A stretch of 64,000 bases of DNA, taken from NCBI GenBank assembly GCA_028696165.1, contig JAQVHQ010000011.1, forward strand, positions 1,866 to 65,865. The letters run 5' to 3'. A program made the position numbers and the translations under genes. Source of the stretch: Lachnospiraceae bacterium (lineage in GTDB: Bacteria; Bacillota; Clostridia; Lachnospirales; Lachnospiraceae). Every line of letters begins with the position of its first letter. Within the stretch, counting starts at the first letter, position 1. Under the pieces are notes generated by a model, which did not search any database, was not told the origin of the DNA, and saw nothing but the letters and a program-made list of their open reading frames with translations. This document shows, in pieces, positions 5,012 to 42,341 of the stretch.

Positions 5012-5021
5012 GTTCAAAGAA

Positions 5022-5176
5022 ACACGCTAGGGGCGCTTTTAGCTGAGATTGTTAGATAAATTAACAGACCCTCATTACTTGAACCGGATAATACCGGCGT
5101 AAGGAAGCTTATTGATAAAATATCCATTATCAAAAAGTCAAAGCACCCTCCACGTGAAAACGAAGGAGGTTTTTTT
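5022..5176 (+). promoter_or_regulatory. TPP (thi-box) riboswitch with terminator/RBS-sequestering hairpin
   Basis: CTAGGGGCGC...GCTGAGA...ACCCTCATTACTTGAACCGGATAATACCGGCGTAAGGAAGC matches thi-box core; expression platform CCTCC(5147-5151)/GGAGG(5165-5169) plus T7 run directly before ATG 5177. Confidence 0.85.
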
Positions 5177-14084: not shown

Positions 14085-14122
14085 GGGGTGATTTTAAAAA
14101 TATTTTTTTTCCAAGGCGGACG

Positions 14123-14303
14123 CAGCGGTTCCATACGGGCGAAAGTTGCGGAACGTGGGCAACGCCAGGGTGAACTATCTGTTAACTTCGACTAAGACGC
14201 TCGGGAACGCCCTCGCGCCTAAGTCTTCGTAAACAGAGGATTTCACCCTGGCTAAGAGCGCCCACTGAATTGTTCCGCGACTTTCGCCCGTATGGAACCG
14301 CTG
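14123..14303. other. 181-nt nested imperfect palindrome (possible structured RNA, + sense favoured)
   Basis: outer arms CAGCGGTTCCATACGGGCGAAAGTTGCGGAAC / GTTCCGCGACTTTCGCCCGTATGGAACCGCTG (32 bp, one T.G), inner arms GTGGGC..GCCAGGGTGAA / TTCACCCTGGC..GCCCAC. Confidence 0.5.
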
Positions 14304-14413
14304 CTGATTTTGGTTGGGACTTTATTTTTTTCTTTCCTTTGTGGTTATATTTAACGGTTATATTTATTGCTTATTTCCTTATTGCTCTTATATTTTACAA
14401 TTTTTCGTTATAT

Positions 14414-18349: not shown

Positions 18350-18378
18350 ATTATAGATGTGTATTTTTAGATTGTCAA
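18350..18378 (-). promoter_or_regulatory. sigma-A consensus promoter of the thrS T-box leader
   Basis: minus sense TTGACA (18373-18378), 17-nt spacer, TATAAT (18350-18355). Confidence 0.75.
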
Positions 18379-18406
18379 GGCACTTTTCGCAGTATTTCCC
18401 AATGGG

Positions 18407-18497
18407 ATTTCTCACGGGTATTTCTCATGGGTATTTTTCATGTACATTTCTCATGCACATTTCTCGCACACATTTCTTGCACATGTTTCTCACGCAC
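18407..18497. repeat. 13-bp tandem repeat x7 (ATTTCTCAYGNRY)
   Basis: ATTTCTCACGGGT ATTTCTCATGGGT ATTTTTCATGTAC ATTTCTCATGCAC ATTTCTCGCACAC ATTTCTTGCACAT GTTTCTCACGCAC, abutting the HD gene stop codon. Confidence 0.9.
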
Positions 18498-18498
18498 A

Positions 18499-19251
18499 TT
18501 ATTTGTAAAAAAGTATGTTACGAATATTTTCCAGAATTTCTATGGTACTAGAATTATCTGATTTAAAACATGCCAATTTCCACATATACCCCTGTTCCAT
18601 TACCATCATCTGGCTTTCCGGATATACAAGTCCGAAAAATAAGGATAAGTGTCCTATCAAATGATCCACCGGTGTCTTCTTCAAACTTCTAAGAACCGTA
18701 TGCCCTTCCAAAAAAGCCTCATACACAGCTGGCGTTACAGATGCCTGTTTTAATTCCTCTGATGTCACATTATATATGTTCTCCATCCCCGTCTCATAAT
18801 TAGCCCGAAAGATATCTATCTTATCCGCATCGCGAATAACCTGAGCAAACAATTTTTCTCTGTTATTCAAATTTACAGGAATCTCATAGCGATTATGACA
18901 GCGTATCGCCATTTCCATCAATTCGTATTTAGAGGTATCCGGTTCAAACCATTCAATCAGGCCCTCTTTAAAAAGAAGATCCGCGCCAAATTCCGCATGG
19001 TCAATCGATTCTGAATCCATAAAAGTATCATATCTTTTCAGCTGTTCGAACCGTCCAATATCATGCAGCATCCCGATCTCCCAGTTTAACTCACAATCAT
19101 CCCCGGAAAGCTTCAGCGACCTTGCAATTCTAGCTGCATTTTCTGCAACTTTCTTTGTATGAATATATTTCAATTGTATCTTAGCATCAGACAAATCATA
19201 CGCCGCAGTATAACTATCAAATGCCTGTTCCACATGCCCTCTTGTATCCAT
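18499..19251 (-). CDS. HD domain-containing phosphohydrolase
   Basis: H..(LHDIGR)..DHAEFGA..RDADKID metal-binding pattern; start at MDTRGH (19251) preceded by GGAGGAAGA. Confidence 0.75.
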   Translation of the reverse strand: MDTRGHVEQAFDSYTAAYDLSDAKIQLKYIHTKKVAENAARIARSLKLSGDDCELNWEIGMLHDIGRFEQLKRYDTFMDSESIDHAEFGADLLFKEGLIEWFEPDTSKYELMEMAIRCHNRYEIPVNLNNREKLFAQVIRDADKIDIFRANYETGMENIYNVTSEELKQASVTPAVYEAFLEGHTVLRSLKKTPVDHLIGHLSLFFGLVYPESQMMVMEQGYMWKLACFKSDNSSTIEILENIRNILFYK

Positions 19252-19327
19252 TCTTCCTCCATCTTGACATAGGAGCAATCAACATAAACAATACGAACAG
19301 TCGAAATCTGCCTCGTTGCTTTTGCTA

Positions 19328-19432
19328 CTACTACTTTTATATCTACTACTTTTATATCTACTACTTTTACTCCTGTTGCTTTTACTCTTGTTGCTTTTAC
19401 TCTTGTTGCTTTTACTCTTGTTGCTTTTTCAC
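19328..19432. repeat. 15-bp tandem repeat x7 (CTACTACTTTTATAT drifting to TTGTTGCTTTTACTC)
   Basis: seven consecutive 15-mers read directly. Confidence 0.9.
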
Positions 19433-19689
19433 CATAACCACATTCATGATACAACAAGCTGCCCCACCTTTCAGCAAAAATACTCCTGTTCTCAATAAAA
19501 TTTTTATTACTTTTCATTAGACGTCTTAAGCACCTACATCATCAAACGAACCAAGTATATCATCCATAATAAAATTTTTCAACACCACCAACTCACCTCA
19601 GATAAGTTAGCGGTTTAACTGCATACTTCTTATAATTCACAACTCCGCTTTTTACCTTTCGCCTTATATCATACAGCTTAACTCTGCAC

Positions 19690-20760
19690 ATGAACTTCCC
19701 ATCCACCACTACGTATCATATTGGATATTTTTTCTTCTACATATGTACTTTTCTCTGGCCTTTACGTATCAAATTAGACAAACTTGCTTCTGTGCACGTA
19801 CTCCCCACCGGCTTTTACGTATCATATTAGACAAACTTGCTTCTGGATACGTACTCCCCGCCGACTTTTACGTATCATTTCGGCATTTCTTACTTCTGAA
19901 TACGTACTTGCATCCTGAATTTACGTGTCATTTCGGGCTTTTTTGCTTCTAGATACGTACCTGCAGCCTGAATTTACGTATCATTTCGGACTTTCTTGCT
20001 TCTGGATACGTACCTGCAGCCTGTATTTACGTGTCATTTCGGACTTTCTTGCTTCTGGATACGTACCTGCAGCCTGTATTTACGTGTCATTTCGGACTTT
20101 CTTGCTTCTGGATACGTACCTGCAGCCTGTATTCACGTGTCATTTCGGACTTTTTTGCTTCTGGATACGTACCTGCATCCTGAATTTACGTATCATTTCG
20201 GACTTTCTTGCTTCTGGATACGTACCTGCAGCCTGAATTTACGTGTCATTTCGGACTTTCTTGCTTCTGGATACGTACCTGCAGCCTGTATTTACGTGTC
20301 ATTTCGGACTTTCTTGCTTCTGGATACGTACCTGCAGCCTGTATTCACGTGTCATTTCGGACTTTTTTGCTTCTGGATACGTACCTGCAGCCTGTATTTA
20401 CGTGTCATTTCGGACTTTCTTGCTTCTGGATACGTACCCGCACCCTGAATTTACGTGTCATTTCGGACTTTCTTGCTTCTGGATACGTACCTGCAGCCTG
20501 TATTCACGTGTCATTTCGGACTTTTTTGCTTCTGGATACGTACCTGCAGCCTGAATTTACGTATCATTTCTATATTTTTTGCTTCTGGATACGTACTCCC
20601 ATCCTGTTTATACGTATCATTTCGACATTTTTCATTTCTGGATACGTACTCCCATCCTGTTTATACGTATCATTTCGACATTTTTCATTTCTGGATACGT
20701 ACCTGCATCCTGAATTTACGTATCATTTCGGACTTTCTTGCTTTTGGATACGTACTCCCA
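19690..20760. repeat. 53-bp satellite, about 20 units, 18 well-phased units from 19796 to 20749
   Basis: unit ACGTACCTGCAGCCTG[T/A]ATT[T/C]ACGT[G/A]TCATTTCGGACTTT[C/T]TTGCTTCTGGAT; degenerate units at both edges. Confidence 0.97.
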
Positions 20761-20937
20761 TTCAATATTCACCTATCAAACAGCCAACTTCCTTATATGT
20801 ACATGCAAGAACAATCTTTTTTCATAGCAATAGCTATACAAACCTTCCAATTCCCACATTCACCCACAAACTCAGCTTTTAACCATCCTACATCCACAGG
20901 CCCCGTGCCCACGGCACGCGATTTTCCACCACAACCT

Positions 20938-21140
20938 AATCCCCTCGCACAACACAAATCCCCCTCTCAACACAATCCTCTTCACAACACAAATCCCCCT
21001 TCACACCGCAATCCCCTTCACACCGCAATCCCCTTCACACCGCAATCCCCTTCACACCGCAATCCCCTTCACACCGCAATCCCCTTCACAACACAATCCC
21101 CTTCACACCGCAATCCCCTTCACAACATATATCCCTCCCC
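20938..21140. repeat. 18-bp C-rich tandem repeat, about 10 units (CACACCGCAATCCCCTTC)
   Basis: five perfect units 21002-21091 flanked by degenerate ones; GGGG every 18 nt on the minus strand. Confidence 0.9.
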
Positions 21141-21169
21141 ACCACCACAGCCAACACCGTCCATCCCAT

Positions 21170-21460
21170 CCGTAAGACTTTACAGCCGGCCAAAAGGATG
21201 GGGAAACTGCTGCTTTTCCCGGTCATAAAATGCGCTGATGAACTTCTTAGGGCGAAAGAGCCGACTACACAGGAATGAAAGGTGTTTACCAAAACACCTT
21301 TCAAAGGCACCCTGAAGGTTGTATGCATCAGCATACAGCCTGAATGTGCCTGGCTTCCTGCGTAGTCGGCTCTTTCACCCTTAGAAGTTCACAGCAAATG
21401 TTCCTGACCGGAAAAAGCAGCAGCTTCCCCATCCTTTTGGCCGGCTGTAAAGTCTTACGG
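21170..21460. ncRNA. unclassified ornate structured element, family copy 2 of 3
   Basis: 35+21-bp outer helix, GCTG/CAGC, 35-bp P2 with T.T and C.A mismatches, hairpin loop TTACCAAA, invariant GTATGCATCAGCATAC at 21321-21336. Confidence 0.55.
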
Positions 21461-21490
21461 ATGAACACACCCCACCTAACCTTCAACCCA

Positions 21491-22042
21491 CTACTTTCTC
21501 AAATAAGCCTCGCGCCCCTCTTCATAAAGATTCCTACCCTCGCAGTCAATAATAACCACCAAAGGCATATCCTCCACATAAAGCTTCCGCAAAGCCTCCG
21601 CACCCAAATCCTCATAAGCAATCAACTCACACTTCTTAATGCACTTTGCCAACAAAGCTCCCGCTCCGCCAATTGCACCAAAATAAACACCACTATACTT
21701 CTTCATGGCATCCACCACTTCCGGCAATCTTGCTCCTTTTCCAATCATTCCTCGGGCACCAACAGACATCATCGTCGGTGCATAAGCATCCATACGCCCG
21801 CTGGTAGTAGGTCCAGCTGATCCAATCACCTGACCCGGTTTTGCAGGTGTCGGTCCCACATAATAAATCGTAGCATCCGCAGGATCAAAAGGAAGCTTCT
21901 CCCCTCTCTCCAATGCCTCACACATCCTCTTGTGCCCTGCATCTCGAGAAGTATAAATAGTCCCTGTCAGATAAACACTATCCCCTGCATGCAGTGTCTT
22001 TGCCAACTCTTCCGTCAATGGAAGCTGTATATGTCTCTCCAT
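21491..22042 (-). CDS. class-I (Fe-S) fumarate hydratase / L(+)-tartrate dehydratase family, beta subunit
   Basis: 183-aa ORF, GTIYTSRDAGHKR, GPTTSGRMD, GKG motifs of FumA C-terminal domain proteins. Confidence 0.85.
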   Translation of the reverse strand: MERHIQLPLTEELAKTLHAGDSVYLTGTIYTSRDAGHKRMCEALERGEKLPFDPADATIYYVGPTPAKPGQVIGSAGPTTSGRMDAYAPTMMSVGARGMIGKGARLPEVVDAMKKYSGVYFGAIGGAGALLAKCIKKCELIAYEDLGAEALRKLYVEDMPLVVIIDCEGRNLYEEGREAYLRK

Positions 22043-27718: not shown

Positions 27719-29389
27719 CTATACATACAAATATGCAATCGCCTCATAAGGACGCAGCATTTTGTCTTCCATTGTTCCATCATTTTCATAATTGGAAATA
27801 TACAGTTCAGACTTCTTAACTTCAATTTCCTTTGGAAGAGTAAACTTCTGCTCTTCTTTGGTAAAATTCAATACCACAAGCATCTTCTGTTCTCCCAACT
27901 GTCGTGTGTATACATAAAGATCTGGATTTTCTTTATCATATTCACAAAATGAACCATATACCGCCACATCATATTTATGACGCTGCTGAATCAATTTCTG
28001 CATATAATGGAAAATCGAGTCCGAATCAGCCCTGGATTCTGCTGCATTAATCTCGCGATAATTTTCATTCATCTTAAGCCAAGGTTTGCCGGTGGTAAAT
28101 CCACCGTTAGCACTGTCATCCCACTGCATTGGAGTTCTGGCATTATCTCTGCCAATATATTCAATTGCTTTCATCAATTCATCCGGATTAGCATTGCCGT
28201 TGACTACTCTGTCATCCCAGGCGTTTCGTATCTGGATGTCCTGATAATCTTCAATGGAATCATACTTCACATTTGTCATGCCCAGTTCTTCACCCTGATA
28301 GATGTAAGGCGTACCCTGCATAGTCATAATCATGGTATAAAGCATTTTAGCACTTTCCTTGCGATACTTTTTGTCATCACCCCAACGGGATACACTTCTT
28401 GGCTGGTCATGATTGGCAAGATAGAGACTGTTCCATGCCAATCCTTCCAATTCTGTCTGCCATTTACTCATAATCTTCTTAAATGCCACCAGGTCAAATG
28501 GTCTCAGATTGAATTTATCTCCGTTAATATACTCCATAGTAACATGTTCAAATTGAAAAACCATGCTCATCTCACTGCCATCTGCAGCTGCATATTTCTT
28601 TGCTTCTTCTACGGTCACTGCAGAAGTCTCTCCAACAGTCATCATGTCTTTATATTTTGACATAACCTTCTGGTTCATCTCATTGAAAAATTCATGAATT
28701 CTTGGTCCATTTTGATAATGTTCTTCACCTATGTTTGCTCGGTCTGTCTTTCCGTCCGGAAGTCCTGGTGTCTTAGAATACATACTTGCCACATCAAGTC
28801 TGAATCCATCTACACCTTTCTGCATCCAGAAGTCCATGATATCATATACTTCATCTCTTACTACCGGATTTTCCCAGTTTAAGTCTGGTTGTTTCTTAGA
28901 GAAGATATGCAGGTAATACTGGTCTGTATTCTCATCATATTCCCATGCACTTCCGGAGAATCTTGAGGTCCAGTTGTTTGGCTCTTTACCATCTTTTCCA
29001 TCGCTCCACATATAGTAGTCACGATATGGGTTATCTTTTGATTTTCTGCTCTCTACAAACCATTTGTGTTCATCTGACGAATGATTCACAACTAAGTCTA
29101 CAATCAGGCGAATCCCACGTTTGTGCATTTCTTCCTGCATCTCATCAAAATCTTCCATGGTTCCAAATTCTTCCATGATGCCTCTGTAATCAGAGATATC
29201 ATAACCATTGTCGTCATTTGGCGATTTGTAATGAGGAGACAGCCATACTGCGTCAATTCCTAATTCCTGTAAATAATCCAGACGGGAAGTAATTCCCTTT
29301 AAATCTCCGATTCCATCACCGTTGGAATCCTGAAAACTCCTTGGATATATTTGATATACTACCGCTTCTTTCCACCATTTTTTGTCCAT
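27719..29389 (-). CDS. GH13 oligo-1,6-glucosidase / alpha-glucosidase (paralog 1)
   Basis: 556-aa ORF; WWKEAVVYQIYPRSF, DLVVNHSSDEH, GFRLDVA, VGE, NHDQPR conserved GH13 regions. Confidence 0.9.
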   Translation of the reverse strand: MDKKWWKEAVVYQIYPRSFQDSNGDGIGDLKGITSRLDYLQELGIDAVWLSPHYKSPNDDNGYDISDYRGIMEEFGTMEDFDEMQEEMHKRGIRLIVDLVVNHSSDEHKWFVESRKSKDNPYRDYYMWSDGKDGKEPNNWTSRFSGSAWEYDENTDQYYLHIFSKKQPDLNWENPVVRDEVYDIMDFWMQKGVDGFRLDVASMYSKTPGLPDGKTDRANIGEEHYQNGPRIHEFFNEMNQKVMSKYKDMMTVGETSAVTVEEAKKYAAADGSEMSMVFQFEHVTMEYINGDKFNLRPFDLVAFKKIMSKWQTELEGLAWNSLYLANHDQPRSVSRWGDDKKYRKESAKMLYTMIMTMQGTPYIYQGEELGMTNVKYDSIEDYQDIQIRNAWDDRVVNGNANPDELMKAIEYIGRDNARTPMQWDDSANGGFTTGKPWLKMNENYREINAAESRADSDSIFHYMQKLIQQRHKYDVAVYGSFCEYDKENPDLYVYTRQLGEQKMLVVLNFTKEEQKFTLPKEIEVKKSELYISNYENDGTMEDKMLRPYEAIAYLYV

Positions 29390-29472
29390 GATTTTTCCTT
29401 TCTAATCGCACAATATTTTATTCAATCACACCCCGGTGCATTATACCCTCAGTTCATCACACATACTAATAA

Positions 29473-29625
29473 CATACAGATACCGATAGCATACACATAC
29501 CGATAGCATACAGATACCGATAGCATACACATACCAATAGCATACAGATACCAATAGCATACACATACCAATAGCATACACATACCAATAGCATACACAT
29601 ACCAATAGCATACACATACTAATAT
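29473..29625. repeat. 17-bp tandem repeat x9 (CATACA[G/C]ATACC[G/A]ATAG) between the GH13 paralogs
   Basis: units phased from 29473; the first six alternate CAG/CAC giving a 34-bp higher-order period. Confidence 0.9.
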
Positions 29626-29700
29626 AGTACATCTAAACTGCTTCATAATCCACCGAAAGCCACATATTTTTTAAGATAATATTTTACGCATACATAGTAA

Positions 29701-29731
29701 CGAAAAGGATGGATATTTCCATCCATCCTTC
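29701..29731 (-). terminator. putative intrinsic terminator after GH13 gene 2
   Basis: minus sense AAGGATGG...CCATCCTT followed by TTCG; weak U tract. Confidence 0.45.
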
Positions 29732-29734
29732 CGC

Positions 29735-31405
29735 TTATTCATACAAATATACAACAGCTTCATAAGGCCGAAGACATTTATCCCCTATTTTCCCATCATT
29801 TTCATAGTTCGATATGTATAATTGTGATTTATTATATTCTATTTCTTTTGGTAAATGAAATTCTTTTTCTTCACCTGTAAAGTTCAATACAACAAGCATT
29901 TTCTGACCATCAAGCTCACGTGTATACACATAGAGCGATTCATTTTCCTCATCATACTCGTGAAAAGAGCCATATACAGCCACTGCGTTTTGCTTTCTCA
30001 GTTTTATCAATTTCTGCATATAATGGAAAATAGAATCTGGATTATCCAGTGATTCTTTTGCATTAATCTCTGTATAATTCCTGTTCATCTTCAGCCAGGG
30101 AGTTCCTGTCGTAAATCCACCATTCTTACTGTCATCCCACTGCATTGGTGTCCTGGCATTATCCCGTGAGATGACGCTGAGTGTATCCAGCATTTCTTCC
30201 GGCGACACCATACCAGTTAATACGCGTTCTTTCCAGATAGTCCGGACATTTATATCCTGATAGTCTTCAATGGATGTATACCCTGCATTGGTCATTCCCA
30301 GTTCCTCTCCCTGATAAATATAGGGTGTTCCCTGCATGGTCATTATCATCGTATACAGCATTTTAGCACTTTCATTTCGATACTTCTTGTCATCGCCCCA
30401 TCGGGACACACTTCTTGGCTGGTCATGATTTGCCAGATACAGGCTGTTCCATGCCAGACCGTCTAATTCAGTCTGCCACTTACTCATGACTTTTTTAAAT
30501 TCGCTCATCTTAAATGGTTTCAAGCTGTATCTGTCACCGTTTTTATATTCAAGATTAACATGCTCGAACTGAAAAATCATTCCCAATTCCTGCCTGTCTG
30601 TTCCAGAATACTTTTTGGCATCCTCTACAGTTACCGCTGCAATCTCACCAACTGTCATAATGTCATCATATTGAGATAACACTTTTTCATTCATCTCTTT
30701 AAAATATTCATGAATTCTTGGTCCATGGAGATAATATTCCGCTCCCACGTTAACATTATTCAAATCTCCATCAGGCAGTCCCTCGGTTTTAGAATAAGAA
30801 CCTGCGGCGTCTAATCGAAATCCATCCACACCTTTTTCGATCCAGAACTTCATCATATCATAGATTTCATCTCTGACTTTAGGATTTTCCCAATTCAAAT
30901 CAGGCTGTTTTGGAGAATATAAATGCAGATAGTATTGATTTGTCTCCCCATTATAATCCCACGCTTTTCCAGAAAATCTGGACACCCAGTTGTTCGGCTC
31001 TTTTCCATCCTTGCCATCACGCCATATATAGTAATCTCTATATGGATTATCTTTGGATTTCTTGCTTTCCACAAACCACTCATGCTCATCTGAAGTATGA
31101 TTCACCACTAAATCAATGACCAGATGAATACCACGTTTACGCATTTCCTGCTGCATCTCGTCAAAATCTTCCATCGTACCAAATTCGTCCATGATATCCC
31201 GGTAATCCGAGATATCATAGCCATTATCATCATTTGGCGACTTAAAATGCGGAGACAACCACACAGTATCAATACCTAATTCCTGCAAATAATCTAATCT
31301 GGAAGTAATTCCCTTCAAATCTCCAATTCCATCTCCGTTGGAATCCTGAAAACTTCTTGGATATATTTGATATACAACTGCTTCTTTCCACCATTTTCTG
31401 TCCAT
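29735..31405 (-). CDS. GH13 oligo-1,6-glucosidase / alpha-glucosidase (paralog 2)
   Basis: 556-aa ORF colinear with paralog 1, same length, long identical peptide stretches. Confidence 0.9.
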   Translation of the reverse strand: MDRKWWKEAVVYQIYPRSFQDSNGDGIGDLKGITSRLDYLQELGIDTVWLSPHFKSPNDDNGYDISDYRDIMDEFGTMEDFDEMQQEMRKRGIHLVIDLVVNHTSDEHEWFVESKKSKDNPYRDYYIWRDGKDGKEPNNWVSRFSGKAWDYNGETNQYYLHLYSPKQPDLNWENPKVRDEIYDMMKFWIEKGVDGFRLDAAGSYSKTEGLPDGDLNNVNVGAEYYLHGPRIHEYFKEMNEKVLSQYDDIMTVGEIAAVTVEDAKKYSGTDRQELGMIFQFEHVNLEYKNGDRYSLKPFKMSEFKKVMSKWQTELDGLAWNSLYLANHDQPRSVSRWGDDKKYRNESAKMLYTMIMTMQGTPYIYQGEELGMTNAGYTSIEDYQDINVRTIWKERVLTGMVSPEEMLDTLSVISRDNARTPMQWDDSKNGGFTTGTPWLKMNRNYTEINAKESLDNPDSIFHYMQKLIKLRKQNAVAVYGSFHEYDEENESLYVYTRELDGQKMLVVLNFTGEEKEFHLPKEIEYNKSQLYISNYENDGKIGDKCLRPYEAVVYLYE

Positions 31406-41480: not shown

Positions 41481-42341
41481 TTATGCCAGCCACTCTGCAA
41501 CTTGCTGCTGCATCAGTATCTCTGTCATCATATTATTGGCAAAAGACAAATCCTCTTTCCATTTTGGACTGCCAGTGTACCAGAACTCTGTGACATATTT
41601 TCTCACGCCTAATTCCCACGCCTTTTCAATAGCCTTCTGGAAATTCACATGACCAGTTCCAAATGGAATTTCACGGAATTTTCCTGGAACTGTCTCTTTA
41701 AGATGCATAGCAACCAGATGTCCTCTGCCCGTTTCCAGGTCTTCCAACACATCTTTGCCCTCCGCCAGTGCAGCATTGGTAATATTACCGATATCCGGAT
41801 ATACATTCAGATAGCAGGAGCTCATTTTATTTACGTACTTCATAGCTTTTGCCACGCTGTTCATAAACTCGGTTTCCATGGTTTCAAATCCCATCACGAT
41901 ACCTGCAGTCTCTGCCATCTCCACTGCTCTGGCAAGATTTTTAGCAAAACGTTCCTTTGTAGTTTCGTCAGAATTTTCATAATATACATCATACCCTGCC
42001 AACTGAATAATGCGGATACCCAAATCATCTGCCAGGCAGATAGCCTTCTCCATGATTTCCATACCTCTTTTCCAGACCGCTTCCTCGCTGCTTCCCAGTG
42101 GATACTTTCTATGTCCGCTCAGACACATGGTCCGAATGGGCATCTGATGTTTCTGCATTAACTGCACCAGCTTAAGTCGTTCTTCCTGAGACATGTCCAG
42201 ACGAGATAATTTCTCATCACTTTCATCAATACTTATTTCAATAAAATCAAATCTGGCCTCTTTTGCTGCCAGCATTTTTTCCTCCCATGACAACTCCGAT
42301 GGCATGGACTTTTCATATAAACCCAGTGAATATGATTTCAT
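41481..42341 (-). CDS. L-ribulose-5-phosphate 3-epimerase family (UlaE/SgbU-like, xylose-isomerase TIM barrel)
   Basis: LGLYEKSMPSELSWEEKMLAAKEARFDFIEISIDESDEKLSRLD closely parallels the UlaE/SgbU N-terminus; 286 aa. Confidence 0.8.
   Translation of the reverse strand: MKSYSLGLYEKSMPSELSWEEKMLAAKEARFDFIEISIDESDEKLSRLDMSQEERLKLVQLMQKHQMPIRTMCLSGHRKYPLGSSEEAVWKRGMEIMEKAICLADDLGIRIIQLAGYDVYYENSDETTKERFAKNLARAVEMAETAGIVMGFETMETEFMNSVAKAMKYVNKMSSCYLNVYPDIGNITNAALAEGKDVLEDLETGRGHLVAMHLKETVPGKFREIPFGTGHVNFQKAIEKAWELGVRKYVTEFWYTGSPKWKEDLSFANNMMTEILMQQQVAEWLA

Follow-up and report, generated by a model that had tools for sequence, protein, structure and literature searches.

A 2.2 kb repeat island behind fumarate hydratase beta in a Lachnospiraceae genome: a probable mosaic of dispersed intergenic repeats

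The stretch of DNA which we have studied (64,000 nt from a Lachnospiraceae bacterium, the window) contains a 2.2 kb island with no credible gene, between the stop codon of fumarate hydratase beta (fumB, 21491) and the start of an HD-domain gene (19251). It is probably a mosaic of lineage-specific non-coding intergenic repeats found at the end of fumB, and not a device dedicated to the HD gene. A first-pass annotation had interpreted the whole island as the leader or promoter of the HD gene; three of its modules have turned out to belong to genome-wide families. The exceptional size which it attributed to the gap is confirmed: this is the largest ORF-free gap in the window and the third largest of the 2,796 in the genome, which have a median of 80 nt and a 99th percentile of 1,253 nt. 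Repeats of the three families are present in 9 of the 12 largest gaps.

The flanking genes had been correctly named (Pfam Fumerase_C, 3.7e-57; HD, 3.9e-10); the public annotation of a near-identical assembly calls the HD product identically, with 250 aa. The absence of a credible ORF between them is also borne out. The long ORFs in the plus strand and one of 115 aa in the minus strand are repeat read-throughs, and no long ORF inside the island has a Pfam match above threshold. The satellite cannot be a repeat protein in a single frame, because its period is 53 nt. Rfam 15 (including ROOL, GOLLD, HEARO, OLE and raiA) gave no match in the island at the gathering threshold, and a permissive search (E up to 10) gave nothing above noise in positions 19000–21800. 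Elsewhere in the window Rfam matches just a TPP riboswitch (5019–5122). The island repeats have no match in phages and plasmids, and a look-up of one of the flanking proteins gave no result.

In the minus strand the order is ORN, a G-rich 17-bp array with a GC hairpin, 20 units of the S53 satellite, unique DNA and a 15-bp array. All the parts described in the first-pass annotation are present, close to where it had placed them. Its list passed over a unique stretch of 73 nt which separates the G-rich tail from the satellite; the array given as 18 bp has a unit of 17 bp, and the unique segment given as about 170 nt has about 270 nt. The features are:

21464..21490 (−): G-rich leader, from the fumB stop codon (21491–21493) to the hairpin foot; a variant of the usual ORN junction
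21167..21463 (−): ORN, a 297-nt Y-shaped giant hairpin, from folding, nhmmer copies and covariance
20831..21166 (−): G-rich module with linker, 17-bp array, GC hairpin and G-rich tail; homologous arrays elsewhere
20758..20830 (−): short AT-rich unique spacer (73 nt) from the G-rich tail to the satellite, from sequence
19698..20757 (−): S53 minisatellite, 20 units of 53 nt with boxes A and B; 28 arrays in the genome
19429..19697 (−): locus-specific unique segment (~270 nt) with a promoter-like site; no second genomic copy
19315..19428 (−): locus-specific 15-bp array, ~7 units, 64–177 nt upstream of the HD ATG; no second genomic copy
19249..19260 (−): ribosome binding site GGAGGA (19255–19260) and ATG (19251–19249) of the HD gene, from sequence

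The secondary structure of ORN combines an outer stem of about 110 bp with two apical hairpins at a three-way junction; complementarity is 97% for the arms of 59 nt and 92% for those of 37 nt. Its folding energy is −233 kcal/mol in the minus strand versus −220 in the plus strand (z = −22.6). We found about 61 copies in the genome with nhmmer, 280–440 nt long. The best pair is only about 90% identical, yet the stems are 92–100% paired. Compensatory changes occur at 59 of 64 pairs, and the covariance model R1 gives the island copy 161 bits. Conservation is highest in the centre and lowest at the ends. Some copies are homologous through the outer stem and the flanks (85.8% over 353 nt), therefore the copied unit is the whole hairpin. 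The sense strand has 123 G.U pairs versus 44 in the antisense, and one U.G is retained in 33 of 40 copies.

The position of ORN is also characteristic: 45 of the 61 copies adjoin the 3' end of a co-oriented gene, with 76–190 nt from the stop codon to the ORN core. Most of the other copies have a G-rich sequence ending in GGAC in the 25 nt before the stem; on the 3' side most copies have TGG and G-rich sequence, not T runs. BLAST found no ORN in 40 relatives, phages and plasmids; its relatives were detected by the covariance model alone, in 5 of 150 other genera of the family, being multi-copy in two. In other genera too it lies mostly 3' of co-oriented genes, in 11 of 14 cases in one genome (G021), where the downstream genes are nevertheless opposite in 7 of 13. 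The stems in other genera are almost purely Watson-Crick, with scarcely any G.U pairs or one-sided changes. We do not consider ORN a Rho-independent terminator: most copies miss the T run. It is not a MITE either, given its poorly conserved ends and the limited identity of even its best pair. No target-site duplications were noticed in a non-systematic inspection.

The G-rich module has about 10–11 copies of the unit GTGAAGGGGATTGCGGT (20930–21135), followed by a single GC hairpin, CGTGCC-GTG-GGCACG (20904–20918), and a tail which contains AGCTGAGTTTGTGGGTG. The complement of the array is C-rich and G-poor and has a folding energy of 0. There are about 40–42 G-rich arrays in the genome; in at least 13 other loci ORN is followed by a homologous array with the identical GC hairpin. 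At the other end of the island the 15-bp array is formed by variants AAAGCAACAAGAGTA and AAAGTAGTAGATATA; it shows no difference in four other assemblies over the part which they cover.

The 20 units of S53 are in perfect register with no indel; the edge units are degenerate, in particular the last 3–4. Each unit has two near-invariant boxes, A (AAGTACGTATC) and B (TGAYACGTAAA), about 33 nt apart. Both have 11 nt and a palindromic TACGTA core, and they are mutually inverted. In the genome there are 28 arrays with about 200 units, essentially none of them solitary. Different arrays share 86% identity in the boxes and 46% in the spacers; within arrays variant positions amount to 4.3% in the boxes versus 10.9% in the rest, with unbiased register slicing. 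Of the 188 GTACGTATC sites in the genome, 172 are within the arrays, and so are 43% of its TACGTA occurrences. A scan with the S53 pattern gave 175 matches in this genome, none in 40 relatives and just single chance matches in 185,579 species genomes and metagenome contigs.

By its features S53 fits the descriptive class of MIRU-type minisatellites (VNTR), with 28 loci and 20 versus 15 units in two assemblies; it has no homology to MIRU. Other assignments were discarded. An RNA hairpin array does not agree with a sense fold at the level of shuffled sequences (z = −0.08), nor with boxes A and B, whose pairing position does not covary and often has A.C mismatches in the sense strand. In a CRISPR array the stretches between boxes would not be alike, as they are here within each array, and a period of 53 bp is too short. 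Comparison by eye with promoters and known operator motifs gave no convincing match, and the boxes have no similarity to IS200 ends.

Whenever these families occur together, their order is ORN, G-rich array and S53, on one strand. Of 26 S53 arrays, 23 have a co-oriented gene upstream and just 17 have one downstream, which speaks against the leader interpretation of the first-pass annotation. Many arrays face a convergent gene and therefore cannot be its leader. In their orientation the repeats follow the G-rich (leading) strand and the upstream gene about equally well; these two causes of polarity are inseparable, because 86% of the genes are on the G-rich strand.

A second, near-identical assembly has 1 mismatch in 8,488 bases and identical flanks. 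It has 15 S53 units at this locus versus 20 here, both being short-read assemblies. The order of units is ABC-QRST-HHKLMNOP in the second assembly versus ABC-DEFGEHIJE-HHKLMNOP here, and three units of the former carry private substitutions. Five other assemblies break 15–452 nt after fumB. In a genome of the same genus the fumB contig stops 20 nt past the stop codon, and the thrS upstream neighbour differs. Variability among relatives, which had been proposed as a sign of neutral junk, applies to S53, which changes between near-identical assemblies and is absent from the other species searched. Among the parts of the island only the unique segment and the 15-bp array are private to this locus.

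Could the arrays, or their lengths, be an artefact of short-read assembly? We consider this extremely unlikely. Other assemblies do break in or beside the repeats, there is a run of 100 N inside one S53 array elsewhere in the genome, and a Logan contig with k = 31 shows ORN flipped. This contig does not demonstrate an inversion: ORN has an exact inverted repeat of 39 nt, longer than k, so that either path of the graph is valid. Against the artefact, ORN, the G-rich tail, the unique segment, the 15-bp array and both array edges are base-identical in two independent assemblies, and dozens of loci carry these families, each with its own unit variants. The repeat features are real; the exact unit counts are uncertain. 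A long repetitive leader which controls the HD gene is also very unlikely. The island does lie directly upstream of this gene on the same strand, and the private unique segment has a promoter-like site, TTGAAA-17-TGnTATACT (19582..19554, minus strand), which is a consensus match only, not enriched over shuffles. The three large modules recur behind unrelated genes, often facing convergent ones, and the S53 length differs between near-identical strains. The HD gene itself is poorly conserved among relatives, with a different neighbourhood in the same-genus genome. Judging from sequence, the unique segment (19429..19697) is likely to be the HD promoter region, and the gene's own upstream region plausibly comprises just the last 330 nt or so, that is, this segment and the 15-bp array.

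The interpretation which we favour sees in the island the most complete local case of a genome-wide repeat mosaic, made of rapidly changing repeats linked to the end of the gene upstream. ORN would have reached the gene ends by copy-and-paste propagation; G-rich and S53 arrays would later have been seeded beside it, growing and shrinking by slippage and unequal recombination, which leave the edges conserved while the centre turns over fast. Some protein probably recognises the conserved boxes of S53: a DNA-binding factor of the host or a repeat-spreading enzyme. We found no mobilising enzyme linked to ORN, the G-rich array or S53, and saw no recent near-identical copies of ORN. The placement after stop codons, sense bias, maintained pairing and conserved boxes could equally well be compatible with a host function. 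One such function, which appears to us unlikely, would be an RNA-level module at the operon boundary: the island would form the 3' UTR of the fumAB transcript. As a 3'-end barrier or an RNase III processing site, ORN would guard the upstream message or separate it; antisense transcripts would acquire Rho at the C-rich complement of the G-rich array, with the arrays serving as insulation between neighbouring units. RNA which is C-rich, G-poor and unstructured is typical of a Rho loading site, as is this complement, and a rho gene is present in the genome. The location of ORN after stop codons in sense orientation, here and in other genera, and its G.U pairs point in the same direction, as does the terminator search: no terminator-like sites were predicted in the minus strand from ORN to the HD gene, nor any intrinsic terminator from fumB to the promoter-like site. 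But the Watson-Crick stems of other genera better suit a DNA palindrome than a selected RNA, the G.U excess could stem from the strong strand composition skew, the S53 sense RNA folds no better than shuffled sequences and its copy number is not conserved.

A different host function, which we find improbable, is that a hypothetical lineage-specific DNA-binding protein uses the S53 boxes as operator-like sites, so that the 28 arrays would be platforms for it (such as roadblocks, nucleoid anchors or titration sinks). Their inverted palindromic cores, conserved while the spacers drift, and the concentration of GTACGTATC and TACGTA in the arrays agree with it. Within the 53-bp period the spacings are 33 and 20 bp; 33, 20 and 53 bp equal about 3, 2 and 5 turns of the helix, which would place all sites on one face. 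The lack of covariation between the boxes and their A.C mismatches also indicate sequence read-out rather than an RNA stem. On the other hand no isolated box sites were found near a regulator gene, the family is limited to one species with a unit number which varies among strains, and the conservation of the boxes could equally serve a spreading mechanism. Finally, ORN, G-rich array and S53 together might form a polar boundary cassette used by the host at the ends of transcription units, a combination for which we see little chance: ORN may be the 3' barrier or processing site, the G-rich array a one-way antisense Rho pad and S53 a phased array bound by a sequence-specific protein. If true, such a modular insulator system would have no counterpart described in bacteria. 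Modules functional at transcript ends would in any case represent a new kind of operon boundary.

Turning again to dispersed repeats, our preferred reading, there are several known systems to compare. The island resembles the BIME of E. coli, clusters of REP or palindromic units, in consisting of scattered non-coding repeats outside genes, mostly immediately behind them. Both show tandem amplification and a mosaic of palindromic units in alternating orientation with linkers; the inverted S53 boxes have linkers of 23 and 10 nt. Both have a conserved short motif at the hairpin foot (GGAC before ORN) and a RAYT-like gene in the genome. They differ in size: ORN has about 300 nt, ten times a REP, whereas the S53 boxes of 11 nt cannot fold on themselves. 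We do not classify ORN or S53 as REP, a GC-rich palindrome of about 20–40 bp with a 5' tetranucleotide, given the ORN length of 280–440 nt; GGAC is a resemblance only. Nor is the RAYT-like ORF a cognate RAYT: it scores 67 bits versus a cut-off of 80, and is flanked by a 20-bp hairpin repeat, GCAGGCGAAAACGGTTTT, not by ORN or S53. The BOX elements of S. pneumoniae, boxA-boxB(n)-boxC, are also modular intergenic repeats with a fixed module order, a middle module of about 45 bp in variable tandem number and more than 100 folded copies restricted to a lineage. The modules of the island are far larger (a hairpin of 297 nt, arrays of up to 20 units) and each type is also found alone. It has no sequence match to BOX in Rfam or elsewhere (E up to 10), so the analogy is architectural only. 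The NIME of Neisseria, RS units flanked by dRS3, have conserved inverted-repeat boxes which alternate with variable units of 50–150 bp at many intergenic loci of one lineage. dRS3 is a phage integration target; here the boxes are different and the phage and plasmid search showed no phage link.

Both MIRU-VNTR of M. tuberculosis and the satellites of Leptospira interrogans are, like S53, families with units of ~50 bp over tens of intergenic loci, with strain-variable unit numbers. MIRU lie inside operons, with short ORFs joined to the flanking genes; S53, whose 53-nt unit is not divisible by 3, does not. Dispersed non-coding families with long units are rare in bacteria: among 119 reference species they were found in L. 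interrogans alone (PMC6749651), with 3–6 arrays per family versus 28 for S53. The latter are arrays of one family, absent from the other species searched and joined in fixed order to the patchily shared ORN. Repeat stacking shows the origin of the largest non-coding gaps in a genome of gut-type Clostridia, and the repeats account for assembly breaks behind certain genes in this species. The S53 boxes offer a concrete starting point in the search for a new protein which binds DNA or spreads the repeat, and the arrays are natural VNTR markers for strain tracking.

The gap between the fumarate hydratase beta gene (fumB) and the HD-domain gene is free of genes and filled with repeats, as the first-pass annotation had described it: the long ORFs in its interior are repeat read-throughs and match no Pfam family. 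A search of the island in Rfam also gave no match. The gap was rightly called exceptionally long, as it is the third in size among the 2,796 ORF-free gaps of the genome, which have a median of 80 nt. The modules that had been named are all present; two sizes had to be corrected, the array of 18-bp units, which has units of 17 bp, and the unique segment of 170 nt, which has about 270 nt. The 53-bp satellite is found as described, with a unit number which we have set at 20.

Features of the island, in minus-strand order
ends at 21491, minus: fumarate hydratase beta gene, fumB (Fumerase_C, 3.7e-57)
27 nt between fumB and ORN, minus: G-rich leader
21463–21167, minus: ORN, giant hairpin of 297 nt
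21166–20831, minus: G-rich module, with a linker, about 10 units of 17 bp (GTGAAGGGGATTGCGGT) and a G-rich tail behind one GC hairpin, CGTGCC-GTG-GGCACG
73 nt between G-rich module and S53, minus: unique DNA
20757–19698, minus: S53 minisatellite, 20 units of exactly 53 nt each
about 270 nt between S53 and 15-bp array, minus: unique segment
19428–19315, minus: 15-bp array, about 7 units
ATG at 19251, GGAGGA ahead, minus: HD-domain gene (HD, 3.9e-10)

The island follows a pattern that recurs across the genome. Tandem Repeats Finder, iterated nhmmer and a motif scan over all 112 contigs of the assembly (3.77 Mb) have given 61 copies of ORN, 42 G-rich arrays and 28 arrays of the S53 type. Sixteen of the G-rich arrays are longer than 150 nt and the majority have an identical CGTGCC...GGCACG hairpin; the S53-type arrays have periods of 53, 106 or 159 and all contain GTACGTATC and GAYACGTAA. 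Where the modules occur together their order is invariably ORN, G-rich, S53 on one strand (for example in contigs C32, C67, C21, C112 and C89). Members of these families are present in 9 of the 12 largest ORF-free gaps. The 270-nt segment and the 15-bp array each occur only once in the genome. A literature search found no description of the three families. Dispersed satellites with long units are rare in bacteria, and 4 satellites per Mb mark a "satellite-rich" species (PMC6749651); this genome has about 28 tandem arrays per Mb (TRF, periods from 10 upwards and 4 or more copies), far above that value, although the methods differ. Half of these arrays have a period which is not a multiple of 3.

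The position of the repeats is related to the gene which precedes them. Of the 61 ORN copies, 45 directly follow the 3' end of a co-oriented gene, and several exceptions are spurious ORFs. The ORN core begins 76–190 nt after the stop codon, which places the start of the outer stem no more than a few tens of nt from the stop; the distance to the downstream gene is broad, 277–1963 nt. For S53 arrays the upstream gene is co-oriented in 23 cases out of 26, the downstream gene only in 17. By these counts ORN, G-rich and S53 go with the fumB end rather than the HD start. Most ORN copies have a common junction: G-rich leader, GGAC, a stem from GC... to ...GC, TGG and a G-rich tail. Since 86% of the genes are on the G-rich (presumably leading) strand, the polarity fits either the upstream gene or that strand, and the two are not separable. 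In the unique segment there is a promoter-like site at 19582..19554 (TTGAAA, 17 nt, TG-n-TATACT), which is a consensus match only.

The predicted fold of the island's ORN, a stem of about 110 bp capped by a three-way junction, has -233 kcal/mol (z = -22.6). The best pair of copies is about 90% identical and most pairs 75–85% across the central 200 nt; despite this divergence the stems are 92–100% paired, with compensatory changes at 59 of 64 pairs. Homology of certain copies extends through the outer stem and the flanks (85.8% over 353 nt), thus the copied unit is the entire hairpin. G.U pairs number 123 in the sense strand versus 44 in the antisense, and one U.G is retained in 33 of 40 copies; this excess may come from the strong composition skew. 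A separate palindrome of 183 nt (window 14122–14304), in the gap between infC and a neighbouring gene, has 33-nt arms which are 97% complementary; by nhmmer it is not of the ORN family.

A BLAST search with ORN in 40 relatives gave nothing. A covariance model built from 40 copies gave full-length matches: of 150 other genera in the family, 5 have ORN, and the genomes G021 and G057 contain at least 14 and at least 13 copies, respectively. In the former 11 of 14 copies are 3' of a co-oriented gene, and the downstream gene is opposite in 7 of 13. The latter has many inverted pairs, plus then minus, 330–500 nt apart (loci L250, L251, L254, L256), which recall REPIN doublets. Two inverted pairs are also found in our genome (C66:16919/17300 and C8:43065/43648). 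In the other genera 92% of cells are paired, versus 58% when shuffled and 33–47% with slid partners, while G.U pairs and one-sided changes are nearly absent. Such near-pure Watson-Crick pairing fits a palindrome at the DNA level at least as well as a selected RNA; it might be kept up, for example, by arm-to-arm correction, or by a function as folded single-stranded DNA. Close relatives are represented by one same-genus genome, 88% complete, in which neither ORN nor S53 was detected. Its fumB contig (G001:C23, L201) stops 20 nt past the stop codon, a hint of an unassembled repeat there too.

The consensus of 25 S53 arrays is AAGTACGTATC-MARAAG-(13 variable)-WWW-TGAYACGTAAA-(10 purine-rich). Between arrays the boxes are 86% identical and the remainder 46%. 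Within arrays, where units were cut by register only so that the motif leaves the sample unbiased, 4.3% of box positions are variant versus 10.9% elsewhere. The boxes are mutually inverted, each with a palindromic TACGTA core; as their spacings are 33 and 20 bp, all should lie on about one helix face. S53 arrays hold 172 of the 188 GTACGTATC sites. Where box A would have to pair with box B, covariation is absent and the sense strand often has A.C; shuffled sequences fold as well as the sense RNA of the array (z = -0.08). Conserved boxes with neither covariation nor an excess of folding look less like RNA stems than like DNA sites read by sequence. The pattern has 175 matches in this genome and none in 40 relatives; in the five genomes from other genera that have ORN it does not exceed the control, and 185,579 species genomes plus metagenome contigs have single chance matches only. 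Four arrays of one subfamily (C63:14886-15420, C95:38651-39115, C69:22453-22515, C112:83597-83661) have a common leader of about 70 nt directly upstream, and in two of the four the upstream homology covers about 500 nt, which indicates that flanking DNA was copied along with the arrays. An internal run of 100 N (C67, about 41916–42015), either a scaffold gap or withheld bases, shows that at least one array is longer than assembled.

A second public assembly, GCA_028692155.1, reached by exact-protein look-up, differs from the window by 1 base in 8,488 nt, a stretch which takes in ORN copy 1 and its 75-bp array. The island is found there on two contigs, and ORN, G-rich tail, unique segment and 15-bp array are identical. 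S53 has 15 units versus 20 in the window, as counted in short-read assemblies. The units read ABC-DEFGEHIJE-HHKLMNOP in the window and ABC-QRST-HHKLMNOP in the second assembly; Q, R and T each have a substitution absent from every window unit, which speaks against a simple collapse of units in assembly. Edges that are kept around a centre in rapid turnover are classically seen in minisatellites. Five further assemblies with an identical FumB all stop 15–452 nt past the stop codon: the island repeats routinely break assemblies. In a k=31 Logan contig (SRR22315505, L223) ORN is flipped relative to window 21167–21463 after an identical fumB flank, and the contig ends at a 39-nt repeat. We have not counted it as an inversion: the exact inverted repeat at the foot has 39 nt, so that at k=31 both assembly-graph paths are valid, and graph ambiguity is the most likely explanation.

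On balance we lean towards the view that intergenic repeats specific to the lineage, similar in kind to BIME, BOX, NIME or MIRU, have accumulated behind fumB as a mosaic. In this view the older element would be ORN, a palindrome with a patchy distribution, and both minisatellites, G-rich and S53, younger additions restricted to the species, which may change size by slippage or unequal exchange. The S53 boxes might be required for recognition by some protein. We find it rather improbable that the arrays bind protein for a host function; a boundary module acting at the RNA level is somewhat less doubtful, if still unlikely. The latter would include the loading of Rho on antisense RNA by the complement of the G-rich array, which is C-rich and unstructured (MFE 0), and a rho gene is present in the genome. 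The reading of the whole island as leader or promoter of the HD gene, proposed in the first-pass annotation, has very little probability, because the three families go with the fumB end. An assembly artefact is hardly credible.

Coming back to the mosaic of repeats, no mobilising enzyme could be tied to ORN, G-rich or S53. The ends of IS200 are unrelated to the repeats, and a RAYT-like gene was discarded by its score below threshold and by the presence of another repeat at its flanks. At C96:52902-53231 (L208 1111-1869, minus) this gene (252 aa, REP_Tyr_transpos 67 bits, cut-off 80) has behind it a 20-bp hairpin repeat in two copies, GCAGGCGAAAACGGTTTT, which is also found as an 11-copy tandem array in C67:40529-40745. 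They may form a separate REP/RAYT system.

Other repeats are found in the window. About six 13-bp repeats take up the space from the HD stop to a perfect TTGACA-17-TATAAT promoter upstream of thrS (repeats and promoter at 18392–18500 and 18350–18378). Rfam gives no T-box leader for thrS in the window, although in the same-genus genome there is a long leader at this gene that looks structured. Two paralogous segments, 2,016 bp apart and 71–77% identical, are present in 27720–31066, and between them there is a 17-bp array, ACACATACCAATAGCAT, with about 10 copies (29459–29624).
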